NCBI GenBank assembly: GCA_902590435.1
Contig: CACIWU010000001.1
Coordinates: forward strand, 26,921 to 90,920
Direction: 5' to 3'
Length of the DNA: 64,000 nt
From: an uncultured SAR324 cluster bacterium
GTDB taxonomy: Bacteria; SAR324; NAC60-12
The notes under the pieces were generated by a model that did no database searches, was not told where the DNA came from, and saw nothing but the letters and a program-made list of their open reading frames with translations. The translations under genes were made by a program, and so were the position numbers. This document shows positions 26,066-64,000 of the stretch, one piece after another. Each line of letters begins with the position of its first letter. The first letter of the stretch is position 1.

Positions 26066-26169
26066 GGTATTCTTTCTCAAAAGTAAAATTTTTTTTATAC
26101 AGACTCCGCTTTCAAGGAGTAAAACTGAAGTCTCGTTTTTCCAGAATAATACAACTGTTAATTGAACTA

Positions 26170-35408: not shown

Positions 35409-36248
35409 TTAATTTGGAGATTTTGAAATCTCCTCTACTTTGATATTCATCACTGACCAATTTTTTGAATTACTTTGTAACTTTAAAGACACTATTACCA
35501 CCTTGCCTAATCCCTCGTCTCCAACACGTACACGAACAATTGAATTTTCAATTTGATTATCTCTTAAATCTAAATGCATTTCCGGTTCCTCAAGAATCGG
35601 ATATTCCTCTAATATTGTTATTAATTCATCGTGATTTCTAATTGCTTCTTCAGCTTTCTGATAAGCTGCTGATTTCTCAATACTATAACGTTGAAACAAA
35701 ATAGCTATTGAAAAAAATCCAAATATAATAATATTTCCAAGGAAAATACGTAGAATAGGTCTCAAAGGATACTTTTTATCAATAACTACCGTACCATGCC
35801 ATTTGTCTGCAAATCTTCTTGCATAGTCATCTCTTAAAAGAATTATACCTTCCAGAGGCAATATTAGCAGGAAAATATTTCTACTTAGAAGAACAAAAAT
35901 AGATGGTGATTCTGATAAATCATTAATAGCGCTAATTTTCATACCTAAAAGAAATTTTCCTGGGCTATTACCTAAAATATCTTTAAAAATTAACATTAAT
36001 AGGACGCTGCTATAAAAAGGAATTAATTCTTGAAAGTCACGAGATTGCGTCACCAAATCCCAATGTTCTTTTTTAGTAATTTCCGAAATAGTATTGACAA
36101 AAAGTAAAGCAATAATAAAATCTAACAACAATGAAAACAAGCGTTTCCCTTTCGAAGAAACTTTTATACGTTTGTCATCATTATTCCCAGATTTTTTTTT
36201 ATTTTCATCTTTAAAGTTAGAATTCATTTTTAATATATTTATTAACAA
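35409..36248 (-). CDS. RDD-family membrane protein
   Basis: Basic N-terminus then RLFSLLLDFIIALLF TM. Later R..D..D-containing segment. 3 TM helices. Confidence 0.5.
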   Translation of the reverse strand: MLINILKMNSNFKDENKKKSGNNDDKRIKVSSKGKRLFSLLLDFIIALLFVNTISEITKKEHWDLVTQSRDFQELIPFYSSVLLMLIFKDILGNSPGKFLLGMKISAINDLSESPSIFVLLSRNIFLLILPLEGIILLRDDYARRFADKWHGTVVIDKKYPLRPILRIFLGNIIIFGFFSIAILFQRYSIEKSAAYQKAEEAIRNHDELITILEEYPILEEPEMHLDLRDNQIENSIVRVRVGDEGLGKVVIVSLKLQSNSKNWSVMNIKVEEISKSPN

Positions 36249-48875: not shown

Positions 48876-50336
48876 TTAAGATTTGTCGATTAGGTTGTTA
48901 AACTCAACTATCAATTTATCAATTTTCGGTGCAAGTGAAAAAATATCACCCCAATATTCATCATGTTCATACCACTGTTTATTCAATTCATCCAATTCAC
49001 GCCCTTGCTGTTCTATCCAAGTAAAATATTTTAAGTTATGAATTCTCTTCTTCTCGTAATGAGTCAATTCAAGCAAATTATCTATTCCCGTGTCCATCAA
49101 TAATTGAAAATCTTTGTGCGAATCGATATTTGTATATTGACCTCTCTCTTCTATCAACTCATCTATACGAGAACCGTAGAGTTCCATTGAATCTGTTAAA
49201 ATGGTCACAACAAAATCATCTTCCGTTAATTCAAAATATTTAGAAAATTTTATTGCTGCAACTAAATTCCCTATACATGAAATTCCCAACCTATCTAAAC
49301 CTTCAGCAAATGCTCTATCAACACCGTAATGCTCTAAACAATCTCTACCAGATTCTTCATTAAAAAGTCTCAATAGGCGGATAGTCACTTCGTCATCAAC
49401 TCCAATTATCATATCAGTATTTCTGCAATCATGAATCCATGGCACATGTTTGTCTCCAATACCTTCTATACGATGGTCACCAAACCCATTGTTAAGAAGA
49501 GTAGGACACTGAAGAGCTTCCGCGACAGCCAATTTTGAGCCAGGATATCTCTCTTTTAAATAATATCCAAATGCCATTGAACCTGCCGAACCCGAAGCTG
49601 AAATACAACCAGCCAATTTGCTTCTAGGCCCCATTTCCTCCAAAAGAGCTTCTTCTGCAGCTTTACCAGTAACATGATAATGCCAAAGAGGATTACCAAA
49701 TTCTTCAAATTGATTAAAAATCTGAATATCTTTACGATCTTTCCTGAGTTCCCAACATTTATCAAAAATTTCCTTAACATTACTTTCACATCCCGGTGTG
49801 GCAATTACCTCACCAGCAAGTTTCTCAAGCCATTCAAAACGTTCTCGTGACATGTTTTCTGGTAGAATGGCTATTGAATCACAACCCAGTAAAGAAGAAA
49901 CATATGCACCTCCCCTACAATAATTACCAGTAGATGGCCATACAGCTTTGGTTTTTGAAGGACTGAATTGCCCAGTAACCAAAGCAGGAGCTAAACAACC
50001 ATAAGTTGCACCCACCTTATGTGCGCCCGTAGGGAACCATTTACCTACCAATGCAATTATTTTAGCATTTACACCAGATATTTCTTTGGGAATAACAATG
50101 TAATTCACATCTCCAAATCCACCGCCCTTAGCTAATGGTTCATTTTTCCAAGTTATTCTATACAAGTTGTTTGGATCAGATTCCCACAAAGTAATTTTCT
50201 TAAGTTCATTTTTAATGTGTTCAGGAATTTTTTCCGGATTTTGCATTTGTTCAAAAGTCGGTAACTTTACTTTATTTTTCTTACAATGCTTAGCATTCTG
50301 AAGAATTTTAGATTCGTTTCTTTTTAAATTAATCAT
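48876..50336 (-). CDS. fold-type II PLP-dependent enzyme, cysteine-synthase/TrpB-like with N- and C-terminal extensions
   Basis: 486 aa. PLP-Lys motif PTGAHKVGA (TrpB-like HTGxHK), CysK-like ILPENMSRER and IEGIGDKHVPW blocks. ~85-aa N and ~100-aa C extensions of unknown nature. Confidence 0.6.
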   Translation of the reverse strand: MINLKRNESKILQNAKHCKKNKVKLPTFEQMQNPEKIPEHIKNELKKITLWESDPNNLYRITWKNEPLAKGGGFGDVNYIVIPKEISGVNAKIIALVGKWFPTGAHKVGATYGCLAPALVTGQFSPSKTKAVWPSTGNYCRGGAYVSSLLGCDSIAILPENMSRERFEWLEKLAGEVIATPGCESNVKEIFDKCWELRKDRKDIQIFNQFEEFGNPLWHYHVTGKAAEEALLEEMGPRSKLAGCISASGSAGSMAFGYYLKERYPGSKLAVAEALQCPTLLNNGFGDHRIEGIGDKHVPWIHDCRNTDMIIGVDDEVTIRLLRLFNEESGRDCLEHYGVDRAFAEGLDRLGISCIGNLVAAIKFSKYFELTEDDFVVTILTDSMELYGSRIDELIEERGQYTNIDSHKDFQLLMDTGIDNLLELTHYEKKRIHNLKYFTWIEQQGRELDELNKQWYEHDEYWGDIFSLAPKIDKLIVEFNNLIDKS

Positions 50337-50357
50337 AATATTTTTATAAAAATTAAA

Positions 50358-51551
50358 TTAATCCCCTTTTCCAATTGGGACCAAATGTTCAAGAGAATTG
50401 ATAGAGTTTTTAGGAATAATAATTTTTTTGTTAGCTGACTTGATATCTTTAAGTCCATTTCCTGTAAGCAATACAACACATGTTTCATTTTTATTTATTA
50501 ATTCTTTTTGTTTCAACAGCCCTGCATAAGCAGTTGCTGAAGCAGGCTCAGAGAATAATCCACAAGTGGAAGATAATTCTTTTTGAGCTAAAAGTATTTC
50601 TTCGTCTGTAACTAAAATACAATGACCTCCATAATTTTCTAAATTTTTCTTCGCCAAGAGTCCATTGCTTGGAACATCCACAGAAATCGAATCTGCAACA
50701 GTTTTTGAAGGAGAAAAATCAAAAAATCCCGACTTCATTGCTCGATATATTGCGGAACTACCAGACGCCTGTATACCATGAATAACAGGAATATTTTTTA
50801 TTAAATCTAGTTTTAATAAATCACGAAATCCTTTATAAATACCGGAAATAATAACACCATCCCCAACACTAACAAAAATATGATCTGGTTCCTTTTTAAG
50901 CTGTTGTAAGAGTTCAAAAGATATAGTTTTTTTCCCTTCAATCGTCATAGGGTTGTATGCTGTGTTACGATTCAAACCACCATATAATTTAGAATACTCA
51001 AGCGAAAGAGAAAATGCTTGATCGTAATTCTTTTCCGCAATCACAACTTCAGCTCCATACTGGAGAGATTGAATCATTTTAGCGGGAGGAGCGTTTTTTG
51101 GTAAAAATAGCTTAACTTTTAAGCCTGCAGCTGCACCAACTCCTGCCATCGAAGACCCCGCGTTACCCGTTGAAGCAACAACAATTTCTTTGATTTGATA
51201 TTTTCTCGCAAAAGCTGCAACTAAAAATGATGCCCTATCTTTAAAAGAACCAGTTGGATTAACTCCATCATCTTTTAAAAACAATTCGGATAAGCCAACT
51301 TTTGCTGAAAGATTTTTAGGATGCCATAATGGAGTATTACCAACAGGAATTGAAGGGAAAAAATTTCGATCTACAGGTAAAAAATCTAACGGATTTTCGC
51401 TTTTTAAAGTCCCACTCAGTTCAACTTCAAGAACTCCATTAAGAGGTTGTCTTGGTTTCTGTTTTAAAGAGCAATCCGGACAAAGCATCAATTCTGGACT
51501 AATCTCATATTCTAAATCACAAAGACTGCATTTATATTTAAAACTTAACAA
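50358..51551 (-). CDS. thrC: threonine synthase (with N-terminal zinc-ribbon)
   Basis: PLP motif NPTGSFKDRAS, STGNAGSS, N-terminal CSLCD...CPDCS ribbon as in short-type ThrC. 21-nt gap to downstream PLP gene. Confidence 0.75.
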   Translation of the reverse strand: MLSFKYKCSLCDLEYEISPELMLCPDCSLKQKPRQPLNGVLEVELSGTLKSENPLDFLPVDRNFFPSIPVGNTPLWHPKNLSAKVGLSELFLKDDGVNPTGSFKDRASFLVAAFARKYQIKEIVVASTGNAGSSMAGVGAAAGLKVKLFLPKNAPPAKMIQSLQYGAEVVIAEKNYDQAFSLSLEYSKLYGGLNRNTAYNPMTIEGKKTISFELLQQLKKEPDHIFVSVGDGVIISGIYKGFRDLLKLDLIKNIPVIHGIQASGSSAIYRAMKSGFFDFSPSKTVADSISVDVPSNGLLAKKNLENYGGHCILVTDEEILLAQKELSSTCGLFSEPASATAYAGLLKQKELINKNETCVVLLTGNGLKDIKSANKKIIIPKNSINSLEHLVPIGKGD

Positions 51552-51675: not shown

Positions 51676-54600
51676 TTAATAGTGGAATTCCAAAGTTTCT
51701 AAAGGTAGGATCTCCTCAAGCTCCTCAAACAATTCAGGAGAAAAACTAATTTTTTCTTCGGGAGTAATTGTAACATTAACAGATTCAGGAGTTTTTATTA
51801 AAAAAGTAAAAGTTTTTTCTCCTGAAAATTTCAGCATAGTATTTCTAAGCAAAATCAATTCATCTTCACGAAGAGGTTCTGAACCCATTCTCAATGACAT
51901 GCTTTTAGCTTCTAACTCCCTTACTTCACTAATTAATCTAATCATATCAACAAATATCCCAACTTTTTCATCTCTATAATTAACCCTGCCTGAAATTAAT
52001 AAAGGGTCATCACTTTCCAAAAGCTCACCATATTTTTCAAAAACTTTTGAAAAGACAGGTAACTCAATTGTTCCTCGCATATCTTCTAAAATTACTATAG
52101 AAAACTTAGTATTATTTTGTGTAAGACGTACAGTATTATTGACAACAGTTCCTATTAAAGAAACTTTTTCATTTTCAGCATGTACCCCATCCTTTAATCT
52201 TGCTGTAGTTGTAGCCAACAAATTTAACTCAGAGGAATAACTGTCAAGAGGGTGGCCTGAAACATAAAATCCCAAAGCCAATTTTTCTTGTTTGAGACGT
52301 TCTCTTTTTGGCCAATTACGTACTTCAGGAAATTCTAGTTGAGTTTCTGTAGCTTCTGCATCTCCATCATCCATTAATTCAAATAAGCTTTCCTGAGATG
52401 GATCCTCTGCAAGTTGAAATTCCTGAGCCAAATGAAATGCATTTTCAAGAGCAGCAAATAATTGTGCTCTGTTTTCATGAAGAGAATCGAAAGATCCACA
52501 CTTTACTAAGGTTTCAAGAACTCTTCTATTAACATCATTTAAATTAACCTTTTTCATAAACTCCATAAAATCAGTTAATTGAGTTTTTTCATTCTTTACT
52601 TTTAGAATCGCATCAACTGCTTTACTTCCAACATTTTTTACTGCATTCAAACCAAAACGTATTACTTCAACTCTAGATTCCCTTCGAAGCCAATTTACAA
52701 AAGATGATCCTTCTCCTAAAATAGAGGAACTAGAATTATGACTAATAGAATCAAATTTTTTTGAAATTTTTTCTAGAAACTCTTTTTCATTTTTGAAGTC
52801 TTGATTGAGGATTGATTTTAGTGAAATCATCATTGATTCAACTTCTTCTTCATTAAGAATATCTGCTTGAACATTTTTACGCATAAAATCTCTTTCAAAA
52901 TGCGCTAAAGTCAATAAGGTAATTTTAAATTCCTCAGGAGCCACAGTAAAAGTTTTTATGCTATTATTAACATCGGGTGGTAATACTTTTATCCCCATCG
53001 TCTTGCATTCACTTATGTAGTTAATAATATTTTCTTGATTATTAATAGCACCATTAAATAATGCAGCCATTATTTGTACAGGGTAATGTGCTTTTAGAAA
53101 TGCAGTTTGGTATGAAATCAAACCATAGGCTACACTATGAGATTTGTTAAACCCGTAGCCTGAGAAGTAGTATATAATATCAAAAATTTCATTTGCTTTT
53201 TCCTTAGGATTGCTTTCTTTAGGACATTGTTCTACAAACTGAATATTTTTCATACATCCCTCAACAAACCGCAGACGCTGCTCATTCAAAATCTCTGGAG
53301 TCTTTTTCCCAATTGCACGACGCAATAAATCAGACTCACCCAAAGAAAATCCAGCTAGAACTTGCACGCTTTTTATAATTTGTTCTTGGTAAACTAATAC
53401 ACCATATGTTTCCTTCAAAATACCCTCCATTAAAGGATGAGGATAAACAACTCTCTTTTTACCATGTTTACATTGTACATAATCTTCTACCATACCTGAT
53501 CCTAAGGGACCTGGTCTATAAAGAGCCAATATTGCAACTATATCTCCAAAAGTCGTTGGCTGCATACTTGAAACCAGGCGTTTCATTCCAGAAGATTCTA
53601 ACTGAAAAACCCCTACAGTATCTGCCCTACACAACAAATCAAAAGTTAAATTATCATCCATAGGAATTTCACTAATATCTAACTTAACCTTGTCTTTACG
53701 ACTTTCAATAATCAAATCCAGAGTATTATCTATGGTAGAAAGATTTTGTAAGCCGAGAAAATCAAACTTGACTGCACCTTGGTCCTCTGCATATTTCATC
53801 GGATACATAGACTGAAGTGTTCCGTCCTTACCTGTACATACCGGCATAACTTCCCGAATATCTTGATTCATTATTATGACACCAGCAGCATGAGTACCTA
53901 AATGAGTATTTAAATCTTCCAGTTGCATACTAAAATTTATCAAACGTTTCTCATTTTCGCTCCCTTCTTTAGCTAATAAAGACAATGCAGGTTCTCTTTC
54001 AAGTGCCTGACCAAGAGTTATATTTAAATCATTAGGTATCAGTTTTGCGATTTTATCCGCTTCAGAATAAGGGAAATCTAGAACTCTTGCCACTCCCCTA
54101 ACTACAGCTTTTGCCTTTAGAGAACCAAAAGTGGATATCTGGCAAACATTTTTCTCTCCATATTTTTCACGAACATGTTCAATCACTTTTTCTCTCCCGG
54201 CAACATCAAAATCAATGTCAAAATCTGGAAGACTTACACGGTATGGATTCAAAAAACGTTCAAATAGTAATCCATAGCGAAGTGGATCTATATCTGTAAT
54301 TAACAAAGAATAAGCAACTAATGACCCTGCACCAGAACCTCTTCCAGGCCCAACAGAGACTCCATTATCTTTCGCCCATTTGATGAACTCTGAAACAATT
54401 AAAAAATACCCCGGATATTCCATCTGAATAATTACTTCTAATTCAAAACTTAAACGCTCCGCATAGGGCTTTTGAAATTCTTCAAAAGAAACTTGTGGAT
54501 TATAAAGTTCGTAAAGTCTCTTAATTCTTTTTTCAAAACCTATTTTAGATTCATTTCGAAGTTTATTTTCAATTGTCTCATCATCACTTGTAGGAATTTG

Positions 54601-55458
54601 TGGAAGAAATATTTTATTATTTTCTAGTGATAAATTACATTGATCTGCAATTTTATTAGCATTTTCTAGGCAAATCATGGGCAAACCTTTAAATGCAGAA
54701 ACCATTTCTTCCGAACTTTTTAAGTAACACTGATTCCCAGACTGAATTGGAGCTTCATTGTCCGAAACTTTAAGTTGTAATCCCATTAAACGAAGTATAT
54801 GTTGCGCTTCTGCTTCTTCAGGAGTTAGATAGAAACAATTATTTGTCCCCACTAATGGGATATCCAATTCACTTCCCAATTCTACTAGCTGATTGTTAAG
54901 ATTTTGCTGCTCCGAAAGTCCTGTATTTTGTATTTCAATATAATATCTGTCCTTAAAAAGATCCTTGAAACGTATTGCAACTTGTCGAGCATTTTCAATT
55001 CTTCCTTCGAGCAGACAAATATTAATTTCACTATCCATTCCTCCACTAAGTACAACTAAATCTTCATTATATTTTTCAAGCATTTCATTATTAATAATTG
55101 GCACTCCATTAATCTTACCCTTTGTATAACTAAGACTAACCAAATAATTCAAATTATGATAACCATTACGATTTTGACAAAGAAAAATAACATGCCCTGG
55201 ATAGTTAAATTTTTTTGTGGGAAAGTTTTGAATTTCTTTATCGTTTCCTTCAATCACTGAAGCTCCTAAACCTATTATAGGTTTTAAATTCGAATCTTTC
55301 ATGGCATGATAAAATTCAACAGCACCGAACATGTTGCCGTGATCAGTTATTGCACAAGACCCAAACCCTTTACTTTTAAGTGTGGGGATTAAATTTTTTA
55401 TGCGTATTGCTCCCTCAAGTAAAGAATATTGAGTATGCAAATGGAGGTGGGTAAACAT
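51676..55458 (-). CDS. dnaE: DNA polymerase III alpha subunit
   Basis: 1260 aa. PHP domain HLHLHTQYSLLEG, polymerase core, OB fold. Confidence 0.95.
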   Translation of the reverse strand: MFTHLHLHTQYSLLEGAIRIKNLIPTLKSKGFGSCAITDHGNMFGAVEFYHAMKDSNLKPIIGLGASVIEGNDKEIQNFPTKKFNYPGHVIFLCQNRNGYHNLNYLVSLSYTKGKINGVPIINNEMLEKYNEDLVVLSGGMDSEINICLLEGRIENARQVAIRFKDLFKDRYYIEIQNTGLSEQQNLNNQLVELGSELDIPLVGTNNCFYLTPEEAEAQHILRLMGLQLKVSDNEAPIQSGNQCYLKSSEEMVSAFKGLPMICLENANKIADQCNLSLENNKIFLPQIPTSDDETIENKLRNESKIGFEKRIKRLYELYNPQVSFEEFQKPYAERLSFELEVIIQMEYPGYFLIVSEFIKWAKDNGVSVGPGRGSGAGSLVAYSLLITDIDPLRYGLLFERFLNPYRVSLPDFDIDFDVAGREKVIEHVREKYGEKNVCQISTFGSLKAKAVVRGVARVLDFPYSEADKIAKLIPNDLNITLGQALEREPALSLLAKEGSENEKRLINFSMQLEDLNTHLGTHAAGVIIMNQDIREVMPVCTGKDGTLQSMYPMKYAEDQGAVKFDFLGLQNLSTIDNTLDLIIESRKDKVKLDISEIPMDDNLTFDLLCRADTVGVFQLESSGMKRLVSSMQPTTFGDIVAILALYRPGPLGSGMVEDYVQCKHGKKRVVYPHPLMEGILKETYGVLVYQEQIIKSVQVLAGFSLGESDLLRRAIGKKTPEILNEQRLRFVEGCMKNIQFVEQCPKESNPKEKANEIFDIIYYFSGYGFNKSHSVAYGLISYQTAFLKAHYPVQIMAALFNGAINNQENIINYISECKTMGIKVLPPDVNNSIKTFTVAPEEFKITLLTLAHFERDFMRKNVQADILNEEEVESMMISLKSILNQDFKNEKEFLEKISKKFDSISHNSSSSILGEGSSFVNWLRRESRVEVIRFGLNAVKNVGSKAVDAILKVKNEKTQLTDFMEFMKKVNLNDVNRRVLETLVKCGSFDSLHENRAQLFAALENAFHLAQEFQLAEDPSQESLFELMDDGDAEATETQLEFPEVRNWPKRERLKQEKLALGFYVSGHPLDSYSSELNLLATTTARLKDGVHAENEKVSLIGTVVNNTVRLTQNNTKFSIVILEDMRGTIELPVFSKVFEKYGELLESDDPLLISGRVNYRDEKVGIFVDMIRLISEVRELEAKSMSLRMGSEPLREDELILLRNTMLKFSGEKTFTFLIKTPESVNVTITPEEKISFSPELFEELEEILPLETLEFHY

Positions 55459-55650
55459 ATTTTTTGGATATTTTTTTTTCGAAGATATTTTTCAATTATG
55501 CTACATGAAATCCTTTTGTCAGACAAGATTCTTATAAGAAAATAACGAGAAATTTACCTATTTAGTTTATAGTACTACAAGTTGAAAGAATAAAAATAGA
55601 CAATTTTAACCAAAAGATTTTTTAATTACCTTCTTTGGAGTTGTCATCTC

Positions 55651-55697
55651 CACATTCTTAATGTAATCTGTTTTGCAGAAAAAATGTTAAGAATGTG
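55651..55697. promoter_or_regulatory. 11-bp perfect inverted repeat CACATTCTTAA-N25-TTAAGAATGTG upstream of Mo-hydroxylase operon
   Basis: Seen directly. Arms at 55651-55661 and 55687-55697, ~47 nt upstream of the FAD-subunit ATG. Candidate operator or 5'-UTR hairpin. Confidence 0.3.
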
Positions 55698-55743
55698 CAA
55701 TTAAATTAAATTTCAGAGAGTTTGTTTAGGGGATAAAGTTTTT

Positions 55744-56574
55744 ATGTCAGCTTATGTTAGACCTGATAATCTTGAAGAAGCATTGGAGTTCTTAAGTGAA
55801 CAGCCTAGAATTTTACTCTCCGGAGGGACTGATTTCTTCCCAGCTAGAGTTGGTAAACCAATCAAAGAAAATGTACTTGATATAACTGGGATTACCAGTT
55901 TAAGATCTATTGAAATGACAAGTGAATATATAAAAATCGGAGCCCTAACTACATGGTCTGATATAGTTCAGTCAAAACTGCCTCCAGCTTTCAACGGATT
56001 AAAAAAAGCTGCAATTACAATTGGTGGTATACAAACTCAAAATGCTGCAACTATATGTGGTAATATATGTAATGCCTCTCCTGCAGCTGACAGTGTCCCA
56101 AATTTGATGGCATTAGATGCCAGAGTAAAATTACAATCTTTAAATGAATCAAGAATTCTTAATTTAGAGGATTTTCTAATAGGAAACAGAAAAACCTTAA
56201 GGAAGCCAAACGAATTGGTTAGTGAAATTTTAATTCCACATCCCAAAGAAAGTTCTTATGGAAATTTCGAAAAATTGGGAGCTCGCGCTTATCTAGTAAT
56301 TTCTATAGTAATGGTTGGAGCTGTAGTTGAATTGGATAAAAAACAAACCGTTTTAAATTTAAAAATAGCTGTTGGATCTTGCTCACCAGTTGCTAAAAGA
56401 CTTAAATTACTAGAAAAAGAAGCTGTAGGACAAAAAATTAAAACTATAAGAATCGAACCAAAGCACATTGATTCTTTGAAGCCAATAGATGATATAAGAG
56501 CAACAGCTAATTACAGAGCTAAAATCATTCCCGAATTGTTAAAAAGAGTAATCAAGGGAGTTGTAAAGCTATGA
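55744..56574 (+). CDS. molybdenum hydroxylase FAD-binding subunit (YgfM/CoxM-like)
   Basis: SD AGGGGA. FAD_binding_5 signature LLSGGTDFFP, CO-dehydrogenase flavoprotein C-domain. 4-nt ATGA overlap with next gene. Confidence 0.8.
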   Translation: MSAYVRPDNLEEALEFLSEQPRILLSGGTDFFPARVGKPIKENVLDITGITSLRSIEMTSEYIKIGALTTWSDIVQSKLPPAFNGLKKAAITIGGIQTQNAATICGNICNASPAADSVPNLMALDARVKLQSLNESRILNLEDFLIGNRKTLRKPNELVSEILIPHPKESSYGNFEKLGARAYLVISIVMVGAVVELDKKQTVLNLKIAVGSCSPVAKRLKLLEKEAVGQKIKTIRIEPKHIDSLKPIDDIRATANYRAKIIPELLKRVIKGVVKL

Positions 56575-59327
56575 GTATAATTGAAAACACTTCCATATCT
56601 TTCGTTTTAAATAATATTCCTCAAAGACTTTCAGTAAATCCGTTGAGTAGATTTTCCGACATTCTTAGAGATCATCTAGGTCTTACAGGCACTAAAGTAG
56701 GATGTGATGCAGGAGATTGTGGAGCTTGTACTATTCAAATTAATGGAGAACAGCGCTACGCTTGTTTAACAGCAACTGGACAATTAGAAGGATGTGATGT
56801 GCGAACTGTTGAAGGACTTTCAACAAATGGTTCAATTTCATCCCTCCAAAAAGCTTTCCTTGAAGAAGGGGCTGCTCAGTGTGGAATTTGTACCCCTGGG
56901 ATGTTAATGGCAGCTCAATCATTACTGGATAAGAATCCAAACCCCAAAAAACAACAAATTCTTGATGCACTCGGAGGAGTACTTTGTCGTTGTACTGGAT
57001 ATACAAAAATCGTTCAGGCCGTAATCAAAGCTGGGAAAGGATTATCAAATAAACAGATTGACAATTCTATTTCTTCCGTTGGAACTCGTATGGAAAAAGT
57101 AGACGGGATAAAGAAAATTAAGGGAAAAGAAATTTTCGGTGCAGATGTTTCCCCAAAGAATTCTCTTTGGCTAAAGGCTATCAGATCTCCGCATTTTAGA
57201 GCTAAATTCTCCCATGATGATCCAGATATAATTTTACAAAGATTTCCAGGTATAAAAAAAATTCTCACTGAAAAAGATATCACTGGTAATAACGGGTTTG
57301 GTATTTATCCAGACATAAAAGATCAACCAGTTTTAGCAAAAGGACATGTCAGATACAGAGGAGAAGCAGTAGTTGCCCTTGTGGGCGAAAAAGAAACTGT
57401 AGAATCCCTTAATGATGAAGATCTGGGATTAAAATGGGAACCTCTAGAAGCCATTCGTGGATGGGATGCTGCTCTTTCAGGAAAATTCGAACCAGTTCAA
57501 TCAGAAATCCCTGACAATATTTTAGCAGAGGGTTACCTCAAAAAAAATGATGTAAAAAAAGGTTTTGAAGAATCTTTTAAAACAGCAGAAGGACATTGGA
57601 TTACTTCTGCTGTTGAACATGGATATATCGAACCTGAAGCAGGTTATGCAGAAAAAGTTGGTCAACGTTTGAACATTTTTGTCTGTACTCAAACTCCATA
57701 TATGGATCAGGCAGAAATTGCTCAAGTTTTGGGAATTAATGCAAATCAAATCCGAATTATTCCTTCAGCTGTCGGTGGAGGATTTGGAGGAAAATTAGAT
57801 CTTTCTCTTCAACCATTAATCGCTCTTGCAGCTTGGATTTTAGATCGTCCTGTTCGTTGTATTTATTCCCGTCCAGAATCTTTAGCTTCAACAACAAAAC
57901 GACATCCAGTTCGTGCATTTGCAAAAGCAGGCTGTAATAGTGAAGGTAAGTTAACTGCATTTGAATATCATGGAGATTTCAATACAGGTGCGTACGCATC
58001 ATGGGGACCCACTGTTGCTGATAGAGTTCCCATTCATTGTACTGGCCCTTATTTTGTTCCAAATGTCCTTTCAAAAACTCGTGCACTTCTTACAAATGAA
58101 TCTCCTTCAGGGGCCTTCAGAGGTTTCGGTACTCCTCAAGCAGCAATTGCACATGAAGCACTTATGGACATTCTTGCTGAAAAAATGGGAATGGATCCAC
58201 TAGATTTTCGTATCAATAACGCAATTCGTAAAGGAGATAAAACTAATACCGGACAATTGCTAGAATACAGCGTAGGCCAAGTAGAATGTTTAGAATCTCT
58301 CAAAAATTCTTGGATTGAGTGGCGCAAAAAAAGTTTATTATACAATACTAAAAATAGAACACTCAAACAAGGAGTTGGATGTGGTTGTGTATGGTATGGA
58401 TGTGGTAACACAGCAATGTCAAACCCATCTACCATGCGAGTGGGGATAAACCATAATGGTAAAATAACTTTGTACAATGGAGCAGTAGATATTGGGCAAG
58501 GTGCTAATACAATTATGATTCAAATTTGTGCTGAATCACTAGGACTACCAGCCACACAATTTGAATTTGTAATGAGTGACACTGATCTTACTGCAGATGC
58601 TGGTAAAACATCTGCTTCGAGACAAACTTTCGTATCTGGTAAAGCTGCGCAGCTTGCTGGAGAAAATTTAAGAGCCCAAATTATCCATCTTGCAGAAGCA
58701 TCCGAAAATGCTTTTCTTAGAATTGAAGAGAATAAACTAATTGTAAAAGATGATTCAGGAGAACATTCCTTGATACTTTCTGATATCTTACCAAAATCGA
58801 ACGGAGATGTACTTATAGGTGAAGGAACATTTGATCCACCTACTACACCACTAGATGAAAATAGACAAGGAGATCCATATGCCACTTATGGATTTGGTGC
58901 CCAGATTGCTCTAGTAGAAGTAGATACTTTATTGGGAACCACCAAAGTAATTAAAATAGCAGCTGCCCATGATGTGGGAAAAGCTATAAATCCAACACAA
59001 GTAGAAGGACAGATTCAAGGTGGAATCGCACAAGGATTAGGGTTGGCATTAATGGAAGAATATATACAAGAATATAGTGAAAATTTTCACGATTATCTTA
59101 TGCCAACTGTTGGAGATATGCCGGACATAGATATAATACTTATTGAAGACCATGAACCTTTAGGTCCTTATGGTGCAAAGGGAATTGGCGAGCATGCCCT
59201 AATTCCGACAGCACCAGCTATTATTGGAGCTATCAAGGATGCTACTGGTATTTCTATCCACCACGTCCCCGCCACACCTGATCGTGTTCTTAAAGCACTC
59301 CATGACAGTAAATTATATAATGTCTGA
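56571..59327 (+). CDS. molybdenum hydroxylase, fused 2Fe-2S + molybdopterin-binding subunit (XdhD-like)
   Basis: N-terminal plant-type and second 2Fe-2S motifs (CDAGDCGACT; CGICTPGM, CRCTGY) followed by aldehyde-oxidase/xanthine-dehydrogenase a/b hammerhead and MoCo domains. 918 aa. Confidence 0.85.
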   Translation: MSIIENTSISFVLNNIPQRLSVNPLSRFSDILRDHLGLTGTKVGCDAGDCGACTIQINGEQRYACLTATGQLEGCDVRTVEGLSTNGSISSLQKAFLEEGAAQCGICTPGMLMAAQSLLDKNPNPKKQQILDALGGVLCRCTGYTKIVQAVIKAGKGLSNKQIDNSISSVGTRMEKVDGIKKIKGKEIFGADVSPKNSLWLKAIRSPHFRAKFSHDDPDIILQRFPGIKKILTEKDITGNNGFGIYPDIKDQPVLAKGHVRYRGEAVVALVGEKETVESLNDEDLGLKWEPLEAIRGWDAALSGKFEPVQSEIPDNILAEGYLKKNDVKKGFEESFKTAEGHWITSAVEHGYIEPEAGYAEKVGQRLNIFVCTQTPYMDQAEIAQVLGINANQIRIIPSAVGGGFGGKLDLSLQPLIALAAWILDRPVRCIYSRPESLASTTKRHPVRAFAKAGCNSEGKLTAFEYHGDFNTGAYASWGPTVADRVPIHCTGPYFVPNVLSKTRALLTNESPSGAFRGFGTPQAAIAHEALMDILAEKMGMDPLDFRINNAIRKGDKTNTGQLLEYSVGQVECLESLKNSWIEWRKKSLLYNTKNRTLKQGVGCGCVWYGCGNTAMSNPSTMRVGINHNGKITLYNGAVDIGQGANTIMIQICAESLGLPATQFEFVMSDTDLTADAGKTSASRQTFVSGKAAQLAGENLRAQIIHLAEASENAFLRIEENKLIVKDDSGEHSLILSDILPKSNGDVLIGEGTFDPPTTPLDENRQGDPYATYGFGAQIALVEVDTLLGTTKVIKIAAAHDVGKAINPTQVEGQIQGGIAQGLGLALMEEYIQEYSENFHDYLMPTVGDMPDIDIILIEDHEPLGPYGAKGIGEHALIPTAPAIIGAIKDATGISIHHVPATPDRVLKALHDSKLYNV

Positions 59328-60780
59328 TTCTGAAAAAGATTCCTCTGATAATAAAGTCAATTGTGATGCGTGCCCCATTCTTTGTAGAATAAGTCCTGGT
59401 AAAACTGGTTCTTGCGATCGTTATGGAAATTTCGAAGGTAAATTAAAACGTATTGATCCTATAATTCTTACTCAAAAAACCGTCGAAAAAAATGAAGCTC
59501 TAGTACCTTTTAGTGAAAATACTTTAAATTGGAAAGGATCTGTTATTAATCATGAGACTATTTTCCCTACTGCTATAGGTGCTGGAACAACTTATCCAGA
59601 TTACAAACCCGCTCCTTTTATTATTGCAAGCAAGCATGATGATATTGACATGATAACTGTTGTAACAGAGGGAATTTTTAGTTATTGCAGTTATAAAATT
59701 AAAATTGATACCGACCGCTATGTGGGACCGGAACAATCTTCTGTAAAATGTGAGGGAGAGAATGTTGGTCATGTTATGACAGCTGAATATGGCTCTCAAA
59801 TGTTATCGTTAGGAGGAGTACATCATTTAACTGGAGGAAGTAAGCAAGAAGGCCGGATAACCTGTCAGATGATGGAAGATTTAGGTAATCAAAAGTCTGT
59901 TGAATTAGAAATTGAAAATGGATCTAAGTTGATTATTCAAGCAGGTAAATCACCAATAATAGATGATATCCAGGAAGAAAGAATGAGAGTAGGATGTGGT
60001 TCTGCTACCATAGGAATCTTTGCTCAACAGTGGTTCGGTAAAGTAGATGAAGTTATTGTAGTTGACGAACATATTACGGGAATGCTTTCTGAACACCAAG
60101 CAGGTAGGTATATAGGGATGAAACCTTCTGGTATTCGATTAAGAGGACGCCGCTCAACTCCTGGAAGATATTTTCAAGTCGCCAATCCAGGACATGGTTG
60201 GGGAGGAACAGATATTTCTGATCCATTAGAAATCATAGATCGTATTAAAGAAGGAGTATCATTCCCTGGGTTAAAACTTTTAATGGTCAGCACAACCGGT
60301 GAGGACGCAGCTTACTTTGTTTTAAACGAAAATTTAAAACCTTGCAAAGAACGCATTCCAGGAGAACTTCAAAAAGTAGTTGATCGCATTGGTGAAAACT
60401 GTGAACCCGCCCAAAGTAGTGTTCTATTCGTGGCCGGAGCAGGAGGTAGTTTGAGAGCTGGAGTTACTGAAAATCCAGTTCGATTGACACGGTCCGTTAG
60501 GCAAATGATAACTCGAACAACATGTGGGGGTGCGCCAGTCTATGTTTGGCCAGGAGGAGGAATAACAGTAATGGTTGATGTATCAAAAATGCCTCAAAAT
60601 TCATTTGGCAGCGTTCCCACTCCAGCTATAGTCGCACCAATTGAATTTACCATGAAACTAAAAGATTTTGAGGATTTAGGAGGGCATCTAAACCATGTAA
60701 GGGAAATCGAAAAAATACCTGAAAATCGAGAAACCAAAATTATAAATTGGAATGAAAAAAATCCGTGGCCATTTCCATAG
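59320..60780 (+). CDS. hypothetical Cys-rich 486-aa protein, translationally coupled to Mo-hydroxylase
   Basis: ATG at 59320 overlaps upstream stop (ATGTCTGA). N-terminal C-x2-C-x3-C-x9-C cluster. Several Gly-rich loops. No recognised family. Confidence 0.55.
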   Translation: MSDSEKDSSDNKVNCDACPILCRISPGKTGSCDRYGNFEGKLKRIDPIILTQKTVEKNEALVPFSENTLNWKGSVINHETIFPTAIGAGTTYPDYKPAPFIIASKHDDIDMITVVTEGIFSYCSYKIKIDTDRYVGPEQSSVKCEGENVGHVMTAEYGSQMLSLGGVHHLTGGSKQEGRITCQMMEDLGNQKSVELEIENGSKLIIQAGKSPIIDDIQEERMRVGCGSATIGIFAQQWFGKVDEVIVVDEHITGMLSEHQAGRYIGMKPSGIRLRGRRSTPGRYFQVANPGHGWGGTDISDPLEIIDRIKEGVSFPGLKLLMVSTTGEDAAYFVLNENLKPCKERIPGELQKVVDRIGENCEPAQSSVLFVAGAGGSLRAGVTENPVRLTRSVRQMITRTTCGGAPVYVWPGGGITVMVDVSKMPQNSFGSVPTPAIVAPIEFTMKLKDFEDLGGHLNHVREIEKIPENRETKIINWNEKNPWPFP

Positions 60781-60834
60781 AAAAAAATTTCACATTTTTA
60801 TAAGAAAATTAATAATAATCGATAATCAATCTCA

Positions 60835-61683
60835 ATGAATCAGGAAGACCATCGTCTGCATCTTCAAGAGGGACCTATTAATCTAATTCTAGACGTAGAT
60901 GCATTTAAAGATATACGAGAAAATTTATTTTTTTCAGCAGAAAAAAGACTGAGTACTGTTCTTAGAGAACTTGTTCTGGAATTGGACTTGTTAAAACTAC
61001 CTTGGAAAATTCATAGTCCTGTCCCAAAAGGGGGAATAGCAAAAAGAATGTTCTACGCAGTAAGTGATCTAGATGTTTTTGTTACTCCAATGGCTGCTGT
61101 CGCAGGTGCTGTTGCAGACGAGATTCTTGATGTCATGCGTAAAACTGTCGAAAACTCCGATTACTACCTAGATAATGTCAAAAGAATGTATGTAAATAAC
61201 GGAGGAGACCTTTCATTTTGGTTAAAAAATGGTTCTTCATTTTCTGTGGGAGTTATTGATAATATTGAAGCACCAGAATTAAATACCAAAGTTTCGCTTC
61301 ATCATGAAAGCCCGGTGAGAGGTATCGCTACTTCCGGTTGGCGAGGCCGCTCACAAAGCCTTGGGATTGCGGATGCTGTAACAGTTTTGGCTAAATCTGC
61401 AGTTGAAGCAGATGTTGCAGCAACTTTGATTGCAAATGATGTAAATATAGAATACCCAGGTATTGAAAAACGTCCTGCATCTGAATTGAAAGATGATAGT
61501 GATCTAGGATCAATGCCAGTTACTATTGGCGTACCTGAATTACCAGATTTTATGATTTCTGAAGCATTAAACAAAGGAGTAAAAACCGCGAGAAAATTTA
61601 TTAACATGGGAATAATTGAAACAGCATACCTTTCCCTCCAAAAACAAACACTTGTTGTAGAAAAAAATAATAATGAGAAATAA
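60835..61683 (+). CDS. ApbE-like / UPF0280-family protein
   Basis: Block GIATSGWRGRSQSLGIADAVTVLAKSAVEADVAATL resembles ApbE signature (TSG..R...G..D.VTV.A..A..ADA.AT). Confidence 0.5.
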   Translation: MNQEDHRLHLQEGPINLILDVDAFKDIRENLFFSAEKRLSTVLRELVLELDLLKLPWKIHSPVPKGGIAKRMFYAVSDLDVFVTPMAAVAGAVADEILDVMRKTVENSDYYLDNVKRMYVNNGGDLSFWLKNGSSFSVGVIDNIEAPELNTKVSLHHESPVRGIATSGWRGRSQSLGIADAVTVLAKSAVEADVAATLIANDVNIEYPGIEKRPASELKDDSDLGSMPVTIGVPELPDFMISEALNKGVKTARKFINMGIIETAYLSLQKQTLVVEKNNNEK

Positions 61684-62269
61684 AATGAGCGATCTAATAA
61701 AAGTTAGAAAAATAGTTACCCATACTGAAAATATATTTCATGAAGGAGGTCCTTCCCTCAAAAATCCAATCAAAAAAGGATATATTTCAATTGTGTTAAA
61801 TAATCCATATGCAGGAAAATTCGTAGAGGATATTACCCCCATGATGGAAGCACTAAAGCCTGTGGGATTGGAAGCGGCCGAACATCTGATAAAATTACTA
61901 GGAGGGTCAAATCAAATTCAAAGTTACGGGAAAGGCTCAATTGTTGGAGAAGAAGGAGAATTAGAACATGGAGCGCTCTGGCATGTCCCAGGTGGATATG
62001 CAATGCGAGAAGCTCTTGGAGGGGCGTTGGCTATAGTTCCCTCATCAAAAAAAGTAGGAGGAATAGGGTGCCGTTTGGATATCCCAATTACACATATAAA
62101 TGCATCTTACGTGCGCAGCCACTTTGACGCAATGGAAGTTTATGTTCAAGATGCTCCAAGGCCAAAAGAAATTGTCTATAGCCTAGTCATGACTACTGGT
62201 GGAAGAACTCATTCCCGAGTAGGAGGATTAGAAGCGGATCAAATTTCCGTCAAAGATGGTCTTAGGTAA
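61673..62269 (+). CDS. DUF1185 / 'amino acid synthesis' (AA_synth) family protein
   Basis: ~195 aa. N-terminal IRKIVTHTENIFHEGG...IVLNNPYAGKF pattern characteristic of PF06684-type proteins. Start may be the internal Met at 61685. Confidence 0.45.
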   Translation: MRNKMSDLIKVRKIVTHTENIFHEGGPSLKNPIKKGYISIVLNNPYAGKFVEDITPMMEALKPVGLEAAEHLIKLLGGSNQIQSYGKGSIVGEEGELEHGALWHVPGGYAMREALGGALAIVPSSKKVGGIGCRLDIPITHINASYVRSHFDAMEVYVQDAPRPKEIVYSLVMTTGGRTHSRVGGLEADQISVKDGLR

Positions 62270-62337
62270 TAATAATTTTATAGACATAAAATATATTTCC
62301 TTAAGTTAACAAAATGTTACTGCTCTATTTTGTTTTG

Positions 62338-64000
62338 CTAATTTCTTTTTCTATATTTTATTGTTTCCTCTAAATTTACGGTTAATTCTTGATGGTTGAT
62401 TACGACACCAAAAAGTTCTTTTACTCTTTGAATTGAATAATAACCTCTAAGGACATCCAGCAAGACTAATTCTGGAGTTCTAAGAAAGGGATCTTCATAT
62501 CCTCCTCCTCCAGGAGTAGAAACATGGATAGTATCTCCTTCTTGCACGAGTATATTTTGATCTTTTGAAAAGTGTGGAGGTATGTATGATTCTCCGCTTT
62601 GCACTACTTTCACAAAATTTAATCCTCCATCTTTACCCTTTAAAACTCCCTGAGGACCAAATCTACCATGATCCATAACCATAGAGACCTTAGCATTCCC
62701 TCTTATAATTTTGATTTTATAATTAACTCCAAACCCTCCTCGTTTTTTCCCAGCACCCCCAGATCCCTCATGAAGTGAATACTCTTCAAACAAAACAGGA
62801 TAAAATTGTTCCATGACTTCGACTGGAGTTGTTTTAGAAATTCCAATTGTTGAACATCCATTTGAAAGGCCATCCTCATTGGGATTGCCTCCATAACCTC
62901 CTCCGCTTATAACATACATTACATAGTTACGATTATACTTAGGATCAAACCCTCCCAAACAAAGGTTCCCACTTGTACCTGCAGGTGCTGCAAATAGTTG
63001 ATTTGGGATTGCTTTTACAAGTGCACTAAAAACCGATTCTGCTATTCGCTGACTTACCTCAGCAGCGCATCCGGAAACAGGACGAGGATATTTAGCGTAC
63101 AAAAAAGTTTCTTCAGGATCTTCAATGTGCAAAGGCTGGAAAGTACCTGCGTTAAGAGGTACTTCAGGGAAGATATGTTTAATTGCTAGATAAATTGAAG
63201 ATTTAGTAGTAGCAATAACACTGTTCATAGGTCCCAAACATGGAGGACTTGAACCAGACATGTCAAAATAAAGTTCCGTGTCTAACTTGCGAATTTTCAT
63301 ATCAATTCGCAAGGGTTCATTTACAACACCATCAGAATCTACTATACCTTCACCATGATAAATCCCATCGGGTATTTCTTTTATTCGAGCCCTCATTTGT
63401 TTTGCCGCCCGGATTTTTAATTCTTTAATGGAATTTTTTACTATTTCTTCTCCATATCGATCAATAAGTTGAGTAAATCTCTTTTCACCGACACTTAGAG
63501 CGGCTGCTTGAGCTTTGATATCACCTATTCGTTGATCAGCAATACGAATATTTGAAAGTACAATAGAAAGTATTTCCTCATCAAGAACCCCTTCTTTGTA
63601 AAGTTTTACTGGTGGTAAACGTAATCCTTCCTGCTCAACTTCAGTTGCATTCGCTGAAAATCCTCCCGGCACGGCACCTCCAGTATCTGGCCAATGCCCT
63701 GTATTCGCTAGCCATGCGAACAATTTTCCTTTGTAAAAAAATGGCTTTACAAAACGGACATCCATTAAATGTGTGCCACCAAGATATGGATCATTTACAA
63801 TAAAAACATCCCCTGGCTTTAAATTTTTTGCCCTATCAATAACGCACTTCGTTCCAAACTGCATTGTTCCTACAAATACAGGTAATCCTAGTTCTCCTTG
63901 AGAAATAAGTTCACCATTTTCTATATCATATATTCCATCTGAACGATCCAATGCTTCTGAGATGACTGGACTAAAAGCAGATCTTACAAAAGCAAGATCC
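62338..64000 (-). CDS. hyuB: hydantoinase B/oxoprolinase family protein (HyuB domain), 5' end beyond window
   Basis: C-terminal PGGGGYEDPFLR..V..DV..GY.S signature. Reading frame stays open upstream of the nominal TTG at 63951 to the window edge (..DLAFVRSAFSPVISEALDRSDGIY..), matching the conserved HyuB N-region. Gene is therefore partial or a HyuA-HyuB fusion. Confidence 0.75.
   Translation of the reverse strand, partial: DLAFVRSAFSPVISEALDRSDGIYDIENGELISQGELGLPVFVGTMQFGTKCVIDRAKNLKPGDVFIVNDPYLGGTHLMDVRFVKPFFYKGKLFAWLANTGHWPDTGGAVPGGFSANATEVEQEGLRLPPVKLYKEGVLDEEILSIVLSNIRIADQRIGDIKAQAAALSVGEKRFTQLIDRYGEEIVKNSIKELKIRAAKQMRARIKEIPDGIYHGEGIVDSDGVVNEPLRIDMKIRKLDTELYFDMSGSSPPCLGPMNSVIATTKSSIYLAIKHIFPEVPLNAGTFQPLHIEDPEETFLYAKYPRPVSGCAAEVSQRIAESVFSALVKAIPNQLFAAPAGTSGNLCLGGFDPKYNRNYVMYVISGGGYGGNPNEDGLSNGCSTIGISKTTPVEVMEQFYPVLFEEYSLHEGSGGAGKKRGGFGVNYKIKIIRGNAKVSMVMDHGRFGPQGVLKGKDGGLNFVKVVQSGESYIPPHFSKDQNILVQEGDTIHVSTPGGGGYEDPFLRTPELVLLDVLRGYYSIQRVKELFGVVINHQELTVNLEETIKYRKRN

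Follow-up and report, generated by a model that had tools for sequence, protein, structure and literature searches.

The DNA analysed here, referred to as the window, comprises 64,000 nucleotides (nt) of the chromosome of an uncultured, low-GC (~32-38%) marine bacterium of the SAR324 cluster (contig CACIWU010000001.1, positions 26,921 to 90,920). Its last part carries a compact operon for a molybdenum hydroxylase, a 486-residue protein of the 6-hydroxynicotinate reductase (Hnr) family, a UPF0280 protein and a DUF1185 protein, and then, on the opposite strand, hyuB, the gene for one subunit of a HyuAB-type enzyme. In our view, this region probably encodes the upper part of the reductive nicotinate pathway, of the type found in Eubacterium barkeri and Azorhizobium, with an exchanged ring-opening enzyme, HyuAB taking the place of enamidase.

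In the proposed pathway, the hydroxylase (55744-59327), carrying flavin adenine dinucleotide (FAD), [2Fe-2S] and molybdenum cofactor (MoCo), would convert nicotinate to 6-hydroxynicotinate, which the iron-sulfur protein Hnr would reduce to 1,4,5,6-tetrahydro-6-oxonicotinate (THON), a cyclic enamide and delta-lactam. HyuA would then use ATP to phosphorylate THON in its lactim form, and hydrolysis would follow at the Asp-His-Asp-His metal site of HyuB, yielding 2-(aminomethylene)glutarate, which would break down to 2-formylglutarate and ammonia. We infer the substrates of these steps from the family membership of the genes and from their orthology to annotated nicotinate clusters.

The part that looks new is that a particular HyuAB orthogroup repeatedly stands in for enamidase, in about one quarter to one third of the related clusters, an exchange of which we found no description; a literature search across journals accessible without subscription returned no paper joining a hydantoinase with 6-hydroxynicotinate or oxonicotinate. 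We hold with roughly even confidence the wider proposal that this orthogroup is an ATP-dependent THON lactamase, which has repeatedly displaced the metal-dependent enamidase in these Hnr clusters (in cultured marine Roseobacters, rhizobia and the window lineage). Its second part, that UPF0280 is a cytoplasmic ApbE-like flavin transferase that matures Hnr, is less certain.

Enamidase and HyuAB exclude each other at Hnr loci

No enamidase (the amidohydrolase-family THON hydrolase, EC 3.5.2.18) was detected in the 64-kb window, in which two enamidase orthologues used as tblastn queries gave no match at E < 1e-3, nor within ±10 kb in the close relatives. One genome per species was scanned for Hnr, and the resulting 80 loci, taken with up to 10 kb on each side, were scored for the presence of either ring opener by tblastn. 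Enamidase alone is present in 43 of these loci and HyuA/B alone in 10, none has both, and 27 have neither (Fisher p = 2e-4). Most of the last group are contigs that end early, and in several of them the transporter genes reach the end of the locus, the position that HyuAB takes in other loci; an eleventh locus has a HyuB fragment at the contig end. The 46 loci with full flanks show the same partition, with 32 enamidase, 6 HyuA/B, 0 both and 8 neither (p = 3e-4).

The possibility that this exclusivity is an artefact of the 10-kb flanks was countered by a replicon-wide analysis of plasmids. A tblastn search identified 26 records carrying Hnr at 56-61% identity, many of them annotated as hnr, and these divide without remainder into 16 with an enamidase orthologue (at least 65% identity) and 10 with a HyuB orthologue, none having both or neither (p = 1.9e-7). 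Hnr is present on every plasmid that has an enamidase orthologue. The HyuB orthogroup is well delimited, its members being 59-85% identical, and the identity of plasmid HyuB proteins to the window protein is bimodal (59-67% on 18 plasmids, 42% or less on all others).

The genomic position of HyuAB tells a similar story. The order FAD subunit, fused FeS-Mo subunit, Hnr, UPF0280, in some cases DUF1185, in some cases a substrate-binding protein, a permease and two ATPases, and finally HyuA and HyuB, is found in Rhodospirillaceae, other Alphaproteobacteria, Betaproteobacteria and a Bordetella metagenome-assembled genome. In five of the surveyed loci the nicotinate genes are followed directly, and on the same strand, by HyuAB, and in four more by HyuA. 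In Sagittula stellata E-37 (HyuAB genes ABFK29_RS21905/21910), hyuA shares bases with the stop codon of the gene for the Mo subunit, and the 26-kb region examined has no annotated enamidase. The close relatives of the window organism (Hnr 79-80% identical) share the order PALP, PALP, dnaE, FAD, FeS-Mo, Hnr, UPF0280, DUF1185, HyuB, HyuA, and in these genomes the HyuB-HyuA pair stays beside the operon despite inserted toxin-antitoxin or other genes. That the arrangement arose by chance can be dismissed, since it is found again both among relatives and in distant phyla; this agrees with the earlier note on this DNA, which had proposed a co-conserved catabolic module for an N-heterocycle.

In a neighbour-joining tree of Hnr (built without support values), the Hyu-type loci occupy at least six separate positions, several of them sister to enamidase-type loci, so that the partition does not go back to one inherited event. 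The exclusion with enamidase, together with the same-strand adjacency in many genomes, makes it very probable that the HyuAB-type enzyme acts as the ATP-dependent ring opener, as the same note had suggested.

HyuB is related to ATP-dependent lactamases

The reading frame of HyuB is open up to base 64000, so that about 25 N-terminal residues, and the whole of hyuA, lie outside the window. Its best match of solved structure is 6YRA_B (1.4e-77), an entry described in the paper on the Pseudomonas jessenii caprolactamase CapAB (PMC8453981), and N-methylhydantoinase (7HK5) is also matched, at 3.9e-67. In CapB, Asp41, His99, Asp102 and His124 bind the metal, and mutants at this site are inactive (PMC8453981). 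All four residues are conserved in the window HyuB, as D18, H77, D80 and H102 (numbering of the truncated protein). Against the NCBIfam equivalog model for CapB (NF050157), the window protein scores 303.8 bits with a cutoff of 1000, and is thus a relative and not an orthologue of the caprolactamase. The hyuA gene is found directly upstream of hyuB in the syntenic relatives L004 and L006 and in Sagittula, and its product carries the ATP-binding motifs DxGGTxxD, DxGGT and GxxPGP.

In the mechanism described for this family, the substrate's lactim tautomer receives a phosphate in subunit A, and hydrolysis then takes place at the metal site of subunit B (PMC8453981). ATP-dependent hydrolysis of delta- and epsilon-lactams has precedent in caprolactamase (PMC8453981) and in OplBA acting on valerolactam (PMC6838509, PMC11033972), and members of the family hydrolyse 5-, 6- and 7-membered lactams, including delta-valerolactam (PMC6838509, PMC11033972). 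Since the metal tetrad and the ATP motifs are kept, the family opens 6-membered lactams and THON is a 6-membered lactam, we infer that HyuAB is the THON lactamase. Like CapAB, OplBA and N-methylhydantoinase, the enzyme would consist of two subunits, A and B, and, as in the case of valerolactam, its proposed substrate has a six-membered ring. In contrast to CapAB and OplBA, its genomic context consists of nicotinate genes, instead of genes for nylon monomers or oxoproline, and THON, on which it is proposed to act, is an alpha,beta-unsaturated (enamide) lactam carboxylate.

The reaction of enamidase is reversible. It may be speculated that, through the coupling to ATP, the ring would be opened irreversibly when the substrate is present at low concentration.

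A related arrangement occurs on plasmid pSMED01 of Sinorhizobium medicae (locus L088, ~7900-13000), where HyuA and HyuB (56% and 64% identical) are accompanied by a convergent DUF1185 gene of type 1 (59%) and a MarR gene, and neither Hnr nor a Mo hydroxylase is encoded within ±10 kb. The hyu and DUF1185 genes converge as in the window, and the locus may be an independent module for THON or a similar lactam.

The core of the operon corresponds to a described nicotinate cluster

Shettigar et al. (2012) described a nicotinate gene cluster in Azorhizobium caulinodans (AZC_2790-2804), Bradyrhizobium japonicum (blr3818-3830), Rhodopseudomonas palustris and Bradyrhizobiaceae strain SG-6C (their Fig. 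4), with a core composed of a Mo hydroxylase, 6-hydroxynicotinate reductase and two conserved proteins of no assigned function (PMC3511419). This cluster was identified by homology to genes that Alhapel et al. (2006; cited in PMC3511419, PMC9304392) reported for E. barkeri, and the Hnr homologue of SG-6C is 42% identical to the E. barkeri enzyme (PMC3511419). A. caulinodans and SG-6C, which have such a cluster, grow on nicotinate and 6-hydroxynicotinate or form THON (PMC3511419, PMC9304392). The reductive route has been summarised by Bokor et al., and in it the enamidase acts on the reduced ring (PMC9304392).

The five plus-strand genes of the window are in the same order as their counterparts on plasmid pDSM110277_c of Sulfitobacter pontiacus, with identities of 46, 48, 60, 44 and 60%. 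The Sulfitobacter cluster comprises, in this order, an amidohydrolase, a ferredoxin-NADP reductase, an XdhM-like protein, the FeS-Mo protein, 6-hydroxynicotinate reductase, UPF0280, two genes of the 'amino acid synthesis family', MarR, a Rieske oxygenase and an ABC transporter; its amidohydrolase matches the E. barkeri enamidase (2VUN) over the full length at 1e-106. Because the order FAD, FeS-Mo, Hnr, UPF0280, DUF1185 is that of the published cluster, the window core is most likely this already described nicotinate cluster, and nicotinate most likely its substrate.

Several proposals of the earlier note have to be revised in this light. It had considered the module as undescribed, whereas the 486-residue protein and DUF1185 match the known cluster (PMC3511419), an outcome that the note itself had named as refuting its reading; the unknown heterocycle that it left as substrate is most likely nicotinate; and its scheme of hydroxylation followed by ring opening has to accommodate a reduction between the two, because the 486-residue protein belongs to the Hnr family. 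The novelty that remains is narrower than was claimed there, consisting in the presence of HyuAB in place of enamidase.

The comparison with characterised systems is consistent with this assignment. The E. barkeri system (NdhFSLM, Hnr and enamidase; 3HRD, 2VUN) likewise includes a Mo-dependent 6-hydroxylation followed by reduction to THON, NdhL and NdhM are the best solved matches of the window Mo domains, and the Hnr cores are homologous. In E. barkeri, however, the hydroxylase has four separate subunits, whereas in the window the FeS and Mo parts are fused; the window Hnr also lacks the N-terminal 2x[4Fe-4S] domain, HyuAB is found instead of enamidase, and the downstream fermentation genes were not seen. 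The proteobacterial clusters include enamidase, usually two DUF1185 paralogues and often a ferredoxin-NADP reductase, whereas in the window HyuAB is found together with one DUF1185 (type 1), and ferredoxin-NADP reductase is missing; an ABC transporter is present beyond hyuA in relatives of the window as well. The nic cluster of Pseudomonas putida KT2440 (NicAB, NicC, NicX) also starts with the conversion of nicotinate to 6-hydroxynicotinate by a Mo hydroxylase, but proceeds by oxidative decarboxylation to 2,5-dihydroxypyridine and ring cleavage by a dioxygenase (PMC3511419, PMC9304392), and involves no Hnr, no THON and no lactam hydrolysis. A plasmid cluster of Comamonadaceae has Hnr next to a differently built hydroxylase, made of a separate 2Fe-2S protein and a 1267-residue Mo protein.

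In clusters of the Roseobacter type (L001 16091-17158, L087 7104-8174, L047 and L065), a VanA-like Rieske oxygenase (PF19112 and PF00355) is encoded beside the ABC transporter. Speculatively, this may be an N-demethylase feeding trigonelline (N-methylnicotinate) into the pathway.

The molybdenum hydroxylase

The FAD subunit belongs to the xanthine-dehydrogenase family and is the predicted medium subunit of nicotinate dehydrogenase, the fused FeS-Mo protein being the predicted catalytic subunit of the nicotinate 6-hydroxylase. They are 46% and 48% identical, respectively, to the genes in the same position of the Sulfitobacter cluster, and their genes lie directly upstream of, and overlap, the Hnr gene. 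The FAD subunit of E. barkeri nicotinate dehydrogenase (3HRD_C) is the second-best solved match of the window FAD subunit (1.2e-20), and for the Mo part chains L and M of the same enzyme are the best solved match (263+220 bits, 483 together), ahead of 4-hydroxybenzoyl-CoA reductase (294 bits) and xanthine dehydrogenase (291 bits). The earlier proposal of a Mo hydroxylase that would form a lactam or pyridone is supported.

The FeS-Mo subunit scores below the cutoff of every NCBIfam equivalog model. The XdhD/YgfM-type label given to the enzyme in the earlier note holds for the domain architecture, while the corresponding NCBIfam models are far under their cutoffs (313 vs 1102 bits and 59 vs 241 bits). 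A purine or xanthine dehydrogenase, or an XdhD/YgfM-type selenate-related system, was rejected, as all such models score below cutoff and the context is one of Hnr and enamidase.

The 486-residue protein belongs to the Hnr family

The 486-residue protein has no sequence match in Pfam, NCBIfam or the PDB. It has more than 8000 homologues, which NCBI and JGI name 6-hydroxynicotinate reductase, and is 56-65% identical to proteins so annotated. According to the homologues, its start is the ATG at 59320 and not the upstream TTG at 59224. The family is very strongly conserved: proteins from different phyla are 58-65% identical, and about 200 alignment columns are invariant. The window protein had been described as Cys-rich, which is generous for 11 Cys in 486 residues, although seven to eight of them are conserved, including an N-terminal CX2CX3CX9C motif (C15, C18, C22, C32); C123, C226 and C361 are likewise invariant.

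A scan of 1.84 billion cluster representatives retrieved 261 family members at E ≤ 1e-30. Homologues of 510-530 residues with 34-46% identity have the N-terminal 2x[4Fe-4S] ferredoxin domain to be expected of the Firmicute type, and in two proteins of about 970-980 residues (P0251 and P0257) the Hnr core is fused to a ferredoxin domain and a GltD-like module (Fer4_20 and Pyr_redox_2, NAD(P)H-flavin). Because of these fusions to ferredoxin and NAD(P)H modules, the Hnr core, which is all that the window protein contains, is marked as a putative reductase supplied through Fe-S clusters by interchangeable electron donors. We thus place the 486-residue protein, from its family membership, as the predicted second enzyme of the pathway and not as the accessory factor it had been taken for. 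Hnr may, speculatively, take its electrons directly from the hydroxylase, to which it is translationally coupled.

The Hnr of E. barkeri (EC 1.3.7.1) is reportedly an iron-sulfur flavoprotein with one [2Fe-2S] cluster, two [4Fe-4S] clusters and a covalently bound flavin. We identified no flavin-binding motif in the Hnr sequence.

The UPF0280 protein

The UPF0280 protein scores 316.8 bits against NF003322 (cutoff 290) and has no Pfam match at E ≤ 0.01, PF02424 included; the model PF27030, 'AbpE_bact', is matched by its relatives. Its gene is present in all 43 enamidase-type and all 10 Hyu-type Hnr loci, almost always directly after Hnr. Of 86 loci in all, 78 have UPF0280 and 65 have DUF1185. 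In one locus (L090, 10001-12911), Hnr, UPF0280 and DUF1185 overlap as a trio surrounded by housekeeping genes (gyrA, BolA, Fe-S assembly), with no hydroxylase, ring opener or transporter within 10 kb, and the trio appears to be a conserved core unit.

A profile search of the PDB with UPF0280 retrieved DVU1097 (2O34) only, and no ApbE. The AlphaFold2 model is of moderate quality (predicted local distance difference test, pLDDT, 69.5; predicted template modelling score, pTM, 0.74), and with it Foldseek found DVU1097 (2O34) at 1.6e-8 and then ApbE, Ftp and FmnB, with E-values of 3e-4 to 1e-2, probabilities of 0.92-1.0 and template modelling (TM) scores of 0.36-0.49. An hhalign comparison with Escherichia coli Ftp paired GIATSG with GISTSG, and likewise ADAAAT with ADAWDT, but the statistical support was weak (E 6e-4, probability 28%). 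The UPF0280 residues in these motifs, T166-S167-G168 and D193...T197, are invariant, and we take the aligned TSG and DxxxT motifs to be those of the pyrophosphate and Mg sites of ApbE. The earlier description of the protein as ApbE-like therefore holds at the level of fold and motifs. The FAD:protein FMN transferases ApbE, Ftp and FmnB share with UPF0280 the predicted fold, in which they rank after DVU1097, and the two motifs, but differ from it in that UPF0280 has no PF02424 match, finds no ApbE in the PDB by sequence profile and has an identity of 11-13%.

UPF0280 is an obligate partner of Hnr and most likely a factor for the maturation of its cofactors, and possibly a flavin transferase, as judged from gene neighbourhood and the structural model. 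The latter role is attractive if the aligned motifs indeed form the pyrophosphate and Mg sites and the Hnr of E. barkeri has a covalently bound flavin. Against it stands the absence from Hnr of the canonical ApbE acceptor motif, Dxx(s/t)gA(T/S), in a regular-expression search; the nearest acceptor-like string is 'GSAT' at residues 227-230, in which some homologues have Ala instead of Thr.

The DUF1185 protein

The DUF1185 protein matches PF06684 over all positions of the profile (1-175/175; 5.5e-70, 234.8 bits vs a cutoff of 27), and relatives of 194 residues suggest that translation may really begin at the ATG at 61685. The protein represents type 1; its identity is 60% to the first Sulfitobacter copy and 43% to the second. 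Type 2 is present in 42 of the 43 enamidase loci and in 1 of the 10 Hyu loci (related loci L007-L086), which suggests that it works with enamidase, whereas type 1 is found with either ring opener. Type 1 also occurs beside the HyuAB orthologue in the Hnr-free S. medicae locus and in the stand-alone L090 trio, and is therefore linked both to the enzyme proposed to make THON and to the one proposed to consume it. The protein of type 1 probably acts on THON or close to it in the pathway.

On the Agrobacterium vitis plasmid NZ_CP118261 (27667-28803), an enamidase paralogue (42%) overlaps or adjoins a DUF1185 gene outside any Hnr cluster, which hints at a wider pairing of amidohydrolases with DUF1185.

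Alternative explanations

Several points weigh against a nicotinate pathway with HyuAB as ring opener in this organism. The hyuB gene of the window is convergent with the operon and not co-transcribed with it, and hyuA lies beyond the window edge. Eight plasmids from three species (S. medicae, Rhizobium rhododendri and Rhizobium sp. Q54) have a HyuB orthologue with no Hnr on the replicon, so that the orthogroup is not exclusively tied to Hnr. Enamidase was sought within ±10-kb flanks or single replicons and, for the window organism, within 64 kb, and its genome may encode one elsewhere. Enamidase needs no ATP, and an ATP-consuming substitute is energetically costly. To our knowledge, no enzyme from a proteobacterial or window-type cluster has been purified. 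The Hnr assignment derives from annotation and from the published 42% identity to the E. barkeri enzyme, and not from a direct alignment to the E. barkeri sequence. The structural model of Hnr, built from 30 homologues, is poor (mean pLDDT 57, pTM 0.47), and a Foldseek search with it gave noise, with no match at E < 1e-3, from which we draw no conclusion on the fold. Finally, no ferredoxin or ferredoxin-NADP reductase gene adjoins Hnr in the window.

Some of these points would fit an operon that encodes the upper nicotinate pathway with HyuAB as a mere neighbour, active on 5-oxoproline, hydantoin or another lactam, or in an ATP-dependent carboxylation, while THON is opened by an enamidase, or by a hydrolase that escaped recognition, encoded elsewhere in the genome. 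In this respect, the convergent orientation of hyuB, the Hnr-free plasmids and the restriction of the survey to loci and single replicons, as distinct from whole genomes, are joined by relatives in which unrelated genes (PEMT, LytTR, toxin-antitoxin) are inserted between the operon and hyuBA, and by the fact that the HyuB family includes carboxylases. A mere neighbour would nevertheless not be expected to split the 26 Hnr plasmids perfectly with enamidase, nor to be absent from all enamidase loci among the 80 genomic ones, and same-strand adjacent or overlapping HyuAB genes recur in unrelated Alpha- and Betaproteobacteria. Moreover, the orthogroup is sharply set apart from other HyuB paralogues (at least 59% vs at most 42%), and its closest solved relatives are a lactamase and N-methylhydantoinase, not carboxylases. 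We therefore regard this explanation as unlikely, though it deserves to be kept in mind.

A slightly smaller likelihood is given to a module that degrades another N-heterocycle, such as a different pyridine carboxylate or a hydroxypyridine, with nicotinate appearing only through transfer of annotation. The Mo-hydroxylase subunits are indeed under every NCBIfam equivalog cutoff, the name Hnr has spread by homology from a single characterised Firmicute type of enzyme, with an additional 2x[4Fe-4S] domain, and the window lineage is known here from sequence alone. However, A. caulinodans and SG-6C, with this type of cluster, grow on nicotinate and 6-hydroxynicotinate or form THON (PMC3511419, PMC9304392). 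The conservation of Hnr across phyla, the co-occurrence of enamidase orthologues in most clusters and E. barkeri nicotinate dehydrogenase as the closest solved Mo enzyme all argue for the nicotinate assignment.

The route of the earlier note, in which the aromatic pyridone formed by hydroxylation is opened directly at the expense of ATP and the 486-residue and ApbE-like proteins are accessory factors of the hydroxylase, is allowed by the gene composition alone and by the lack of a recognisable domain in the 486-residue protein, but is very improbable, considering that the fusion of distant Hnr members to ferredoxin or NAD(P)H-oxidoreductase modules marks the 486-residue protein as itself a redox enzyme, that Hnr occurs with UPF0280 and DUF1185 away from any nearby Mo hydroxylase (L090) and beside a differently built hydroxylase (Comamonadaceae), and that enamidase, which HyuAB replaces, acts on the reduced ring (PMC9304392).

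Relevance of the proposed exchange

Nicotinate is a vitamin and an NAD precursor exchanged in marine and rhizosphere communities, and its consumers can be identified only if the pathway is recognised. Under annotation schemes in which enamidase is obligatory, the Hyu-type organisms, including the window lineage, would be scored as lacking the pathway. If HyuAB indeed opens THON, a naturally occurring enamide-lactam carboxylate would join the substrates of the ATP-dependent lactamases, few of which have been characterised and which attract interest for the mild hydrolysis of lactams and nylon monomers. If the proposed role of UPF0280 is correct, this family, also widespread in archaea, would gain its first function. 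Two observations, that Hnr and UPF0280 are strictly paired and that the two DUF1185 paralogues behave differently, provide concrete, testable hypotheses for the long-standing unknowns of the cluster, and the proposals can be tested in cultured strains such as Sagittula stellata E-37, Methylobacterium aquaticum and Rhizobium lusitanum.

Gene arrangement in the window

The six genes of the region, their two start/stop overlaps and the convergent gap were read from the sequence (Table 1), which bears out the tightly packed operon described in the earlier note. The FAD and FeS-Mo genes overlap by ATGA (56571-56574), and the FeS-Mo gene and the 486-residue reading frame by ATGTCTGA (59320-59327). 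The GC content rises slightly over the cluster, from ~0.32 to ~0.38, and the remaining window is ordinary chromosome (groEL, lysS, cysS, dnaE, lpxC, lptE, miaA, miaB). Scans for sigma-70 promoters and terminators gave 24 sites, against 27.5±5.6 in shuffled sequence, and no promoter was assignable between dnaE and the operon; in the gap between the DUF1185 gene and hyuB, the scan gave no terminator-like site, and folding was no better than shuffled (z = -1.1).

Table 1. Features of the predicted nicotinate region and its borders
Feature	Position	Strand	Evidence or remark
dnaE	51676-55458	-	Divergent neighbour upstream of the operon
Intergenic region, AT-rich, 285 nt	55459..55743	.	Between divergent dnaE and operon; presumed promoter site
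FAD-binding subunit, 276 aa	55744-56574	+	PF00941 2.1e-39, PF03450 9.8e-11
Fused [2Fe-2S]/MoCo subunit, 918 aa	56571-59327	+	Fer2_2, Ald_Xan_dh_C, MoCoBD_1, MoCoBD_2
Hnr-family protein, 486 aa	59320-60780	+	Homology to annotated 6-hydroxynicotinate reductase
UPF0280 protein, 282 aa	60835-61683	+	NCBIfam NF003322
DUF1185/AA_synth type 1, 198 aa (194 aa from ATG 61685)	61673-62269	+	PF06684
Convergent gap DUF1185/hyuB, AT-rich, exactly 68 nt	62270..62337	.	Sequence
hyuB, cut by window edge, 553 residues present	62338..64000	-	Hydantoinase_B domain, PF02538 3.7e-141
HyuB tetrad codons D18, H77, D80, H102	63946-63948, 63769-63771, 63760-63762, 63694-63696	-	Alignment to CapB

Some further features of the related loci were observed. 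In L006, an AAA_14/DUF4143 gene and a PhdYeFM antitoxin gene are inserted between Hnr and UPF0280 (11775-14036), PemK and RHH genes are inserted between hyuB and hyuA (17269-17813), and the Mo gene is split into two open reading frames (ORFs), so that this locus may be decaying. A 468-residue protein with no Pfam match is encoded between hyuA and two ABC ATPase genes in L004 (10101-11507, minus strand) and L006 (~20071-21438); its homologues (39-41% identity) occur near Hnr in L026 and L077, and it may be an unusual transporter component.

Elsewhere in the window, a PALP pair (48876-51551, minus strand) next to dnaE encodes two pyridoxal phosphate-dependent enzymes, one of them an atypical protein of 486 residues with a weak match, and the position of the pair is conserved in the relatives L003 and L006. 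Four sizeable ORFs have no Pfam match at 1e-5, namely 6720-8411 (minus strand, 563 residues), 26011-27345 (plus, 444), 33573-34874 (minus, 433) and 35409-36248 (minus, 279). A protein of 438 residues (8488-9804, minus strand) is made up almost entirely of ankyrin repeats (Ank_2 4.9e-73). Finally, the gene at 18292-19632 (plus strand) encodes a 446-residue fusion of unusual architecture, with a response-regulator receiver domain (residues 11-120) and a full LpxC deacetylase (165-440), which would put lipid A synthesis under direct phosphorelay control.

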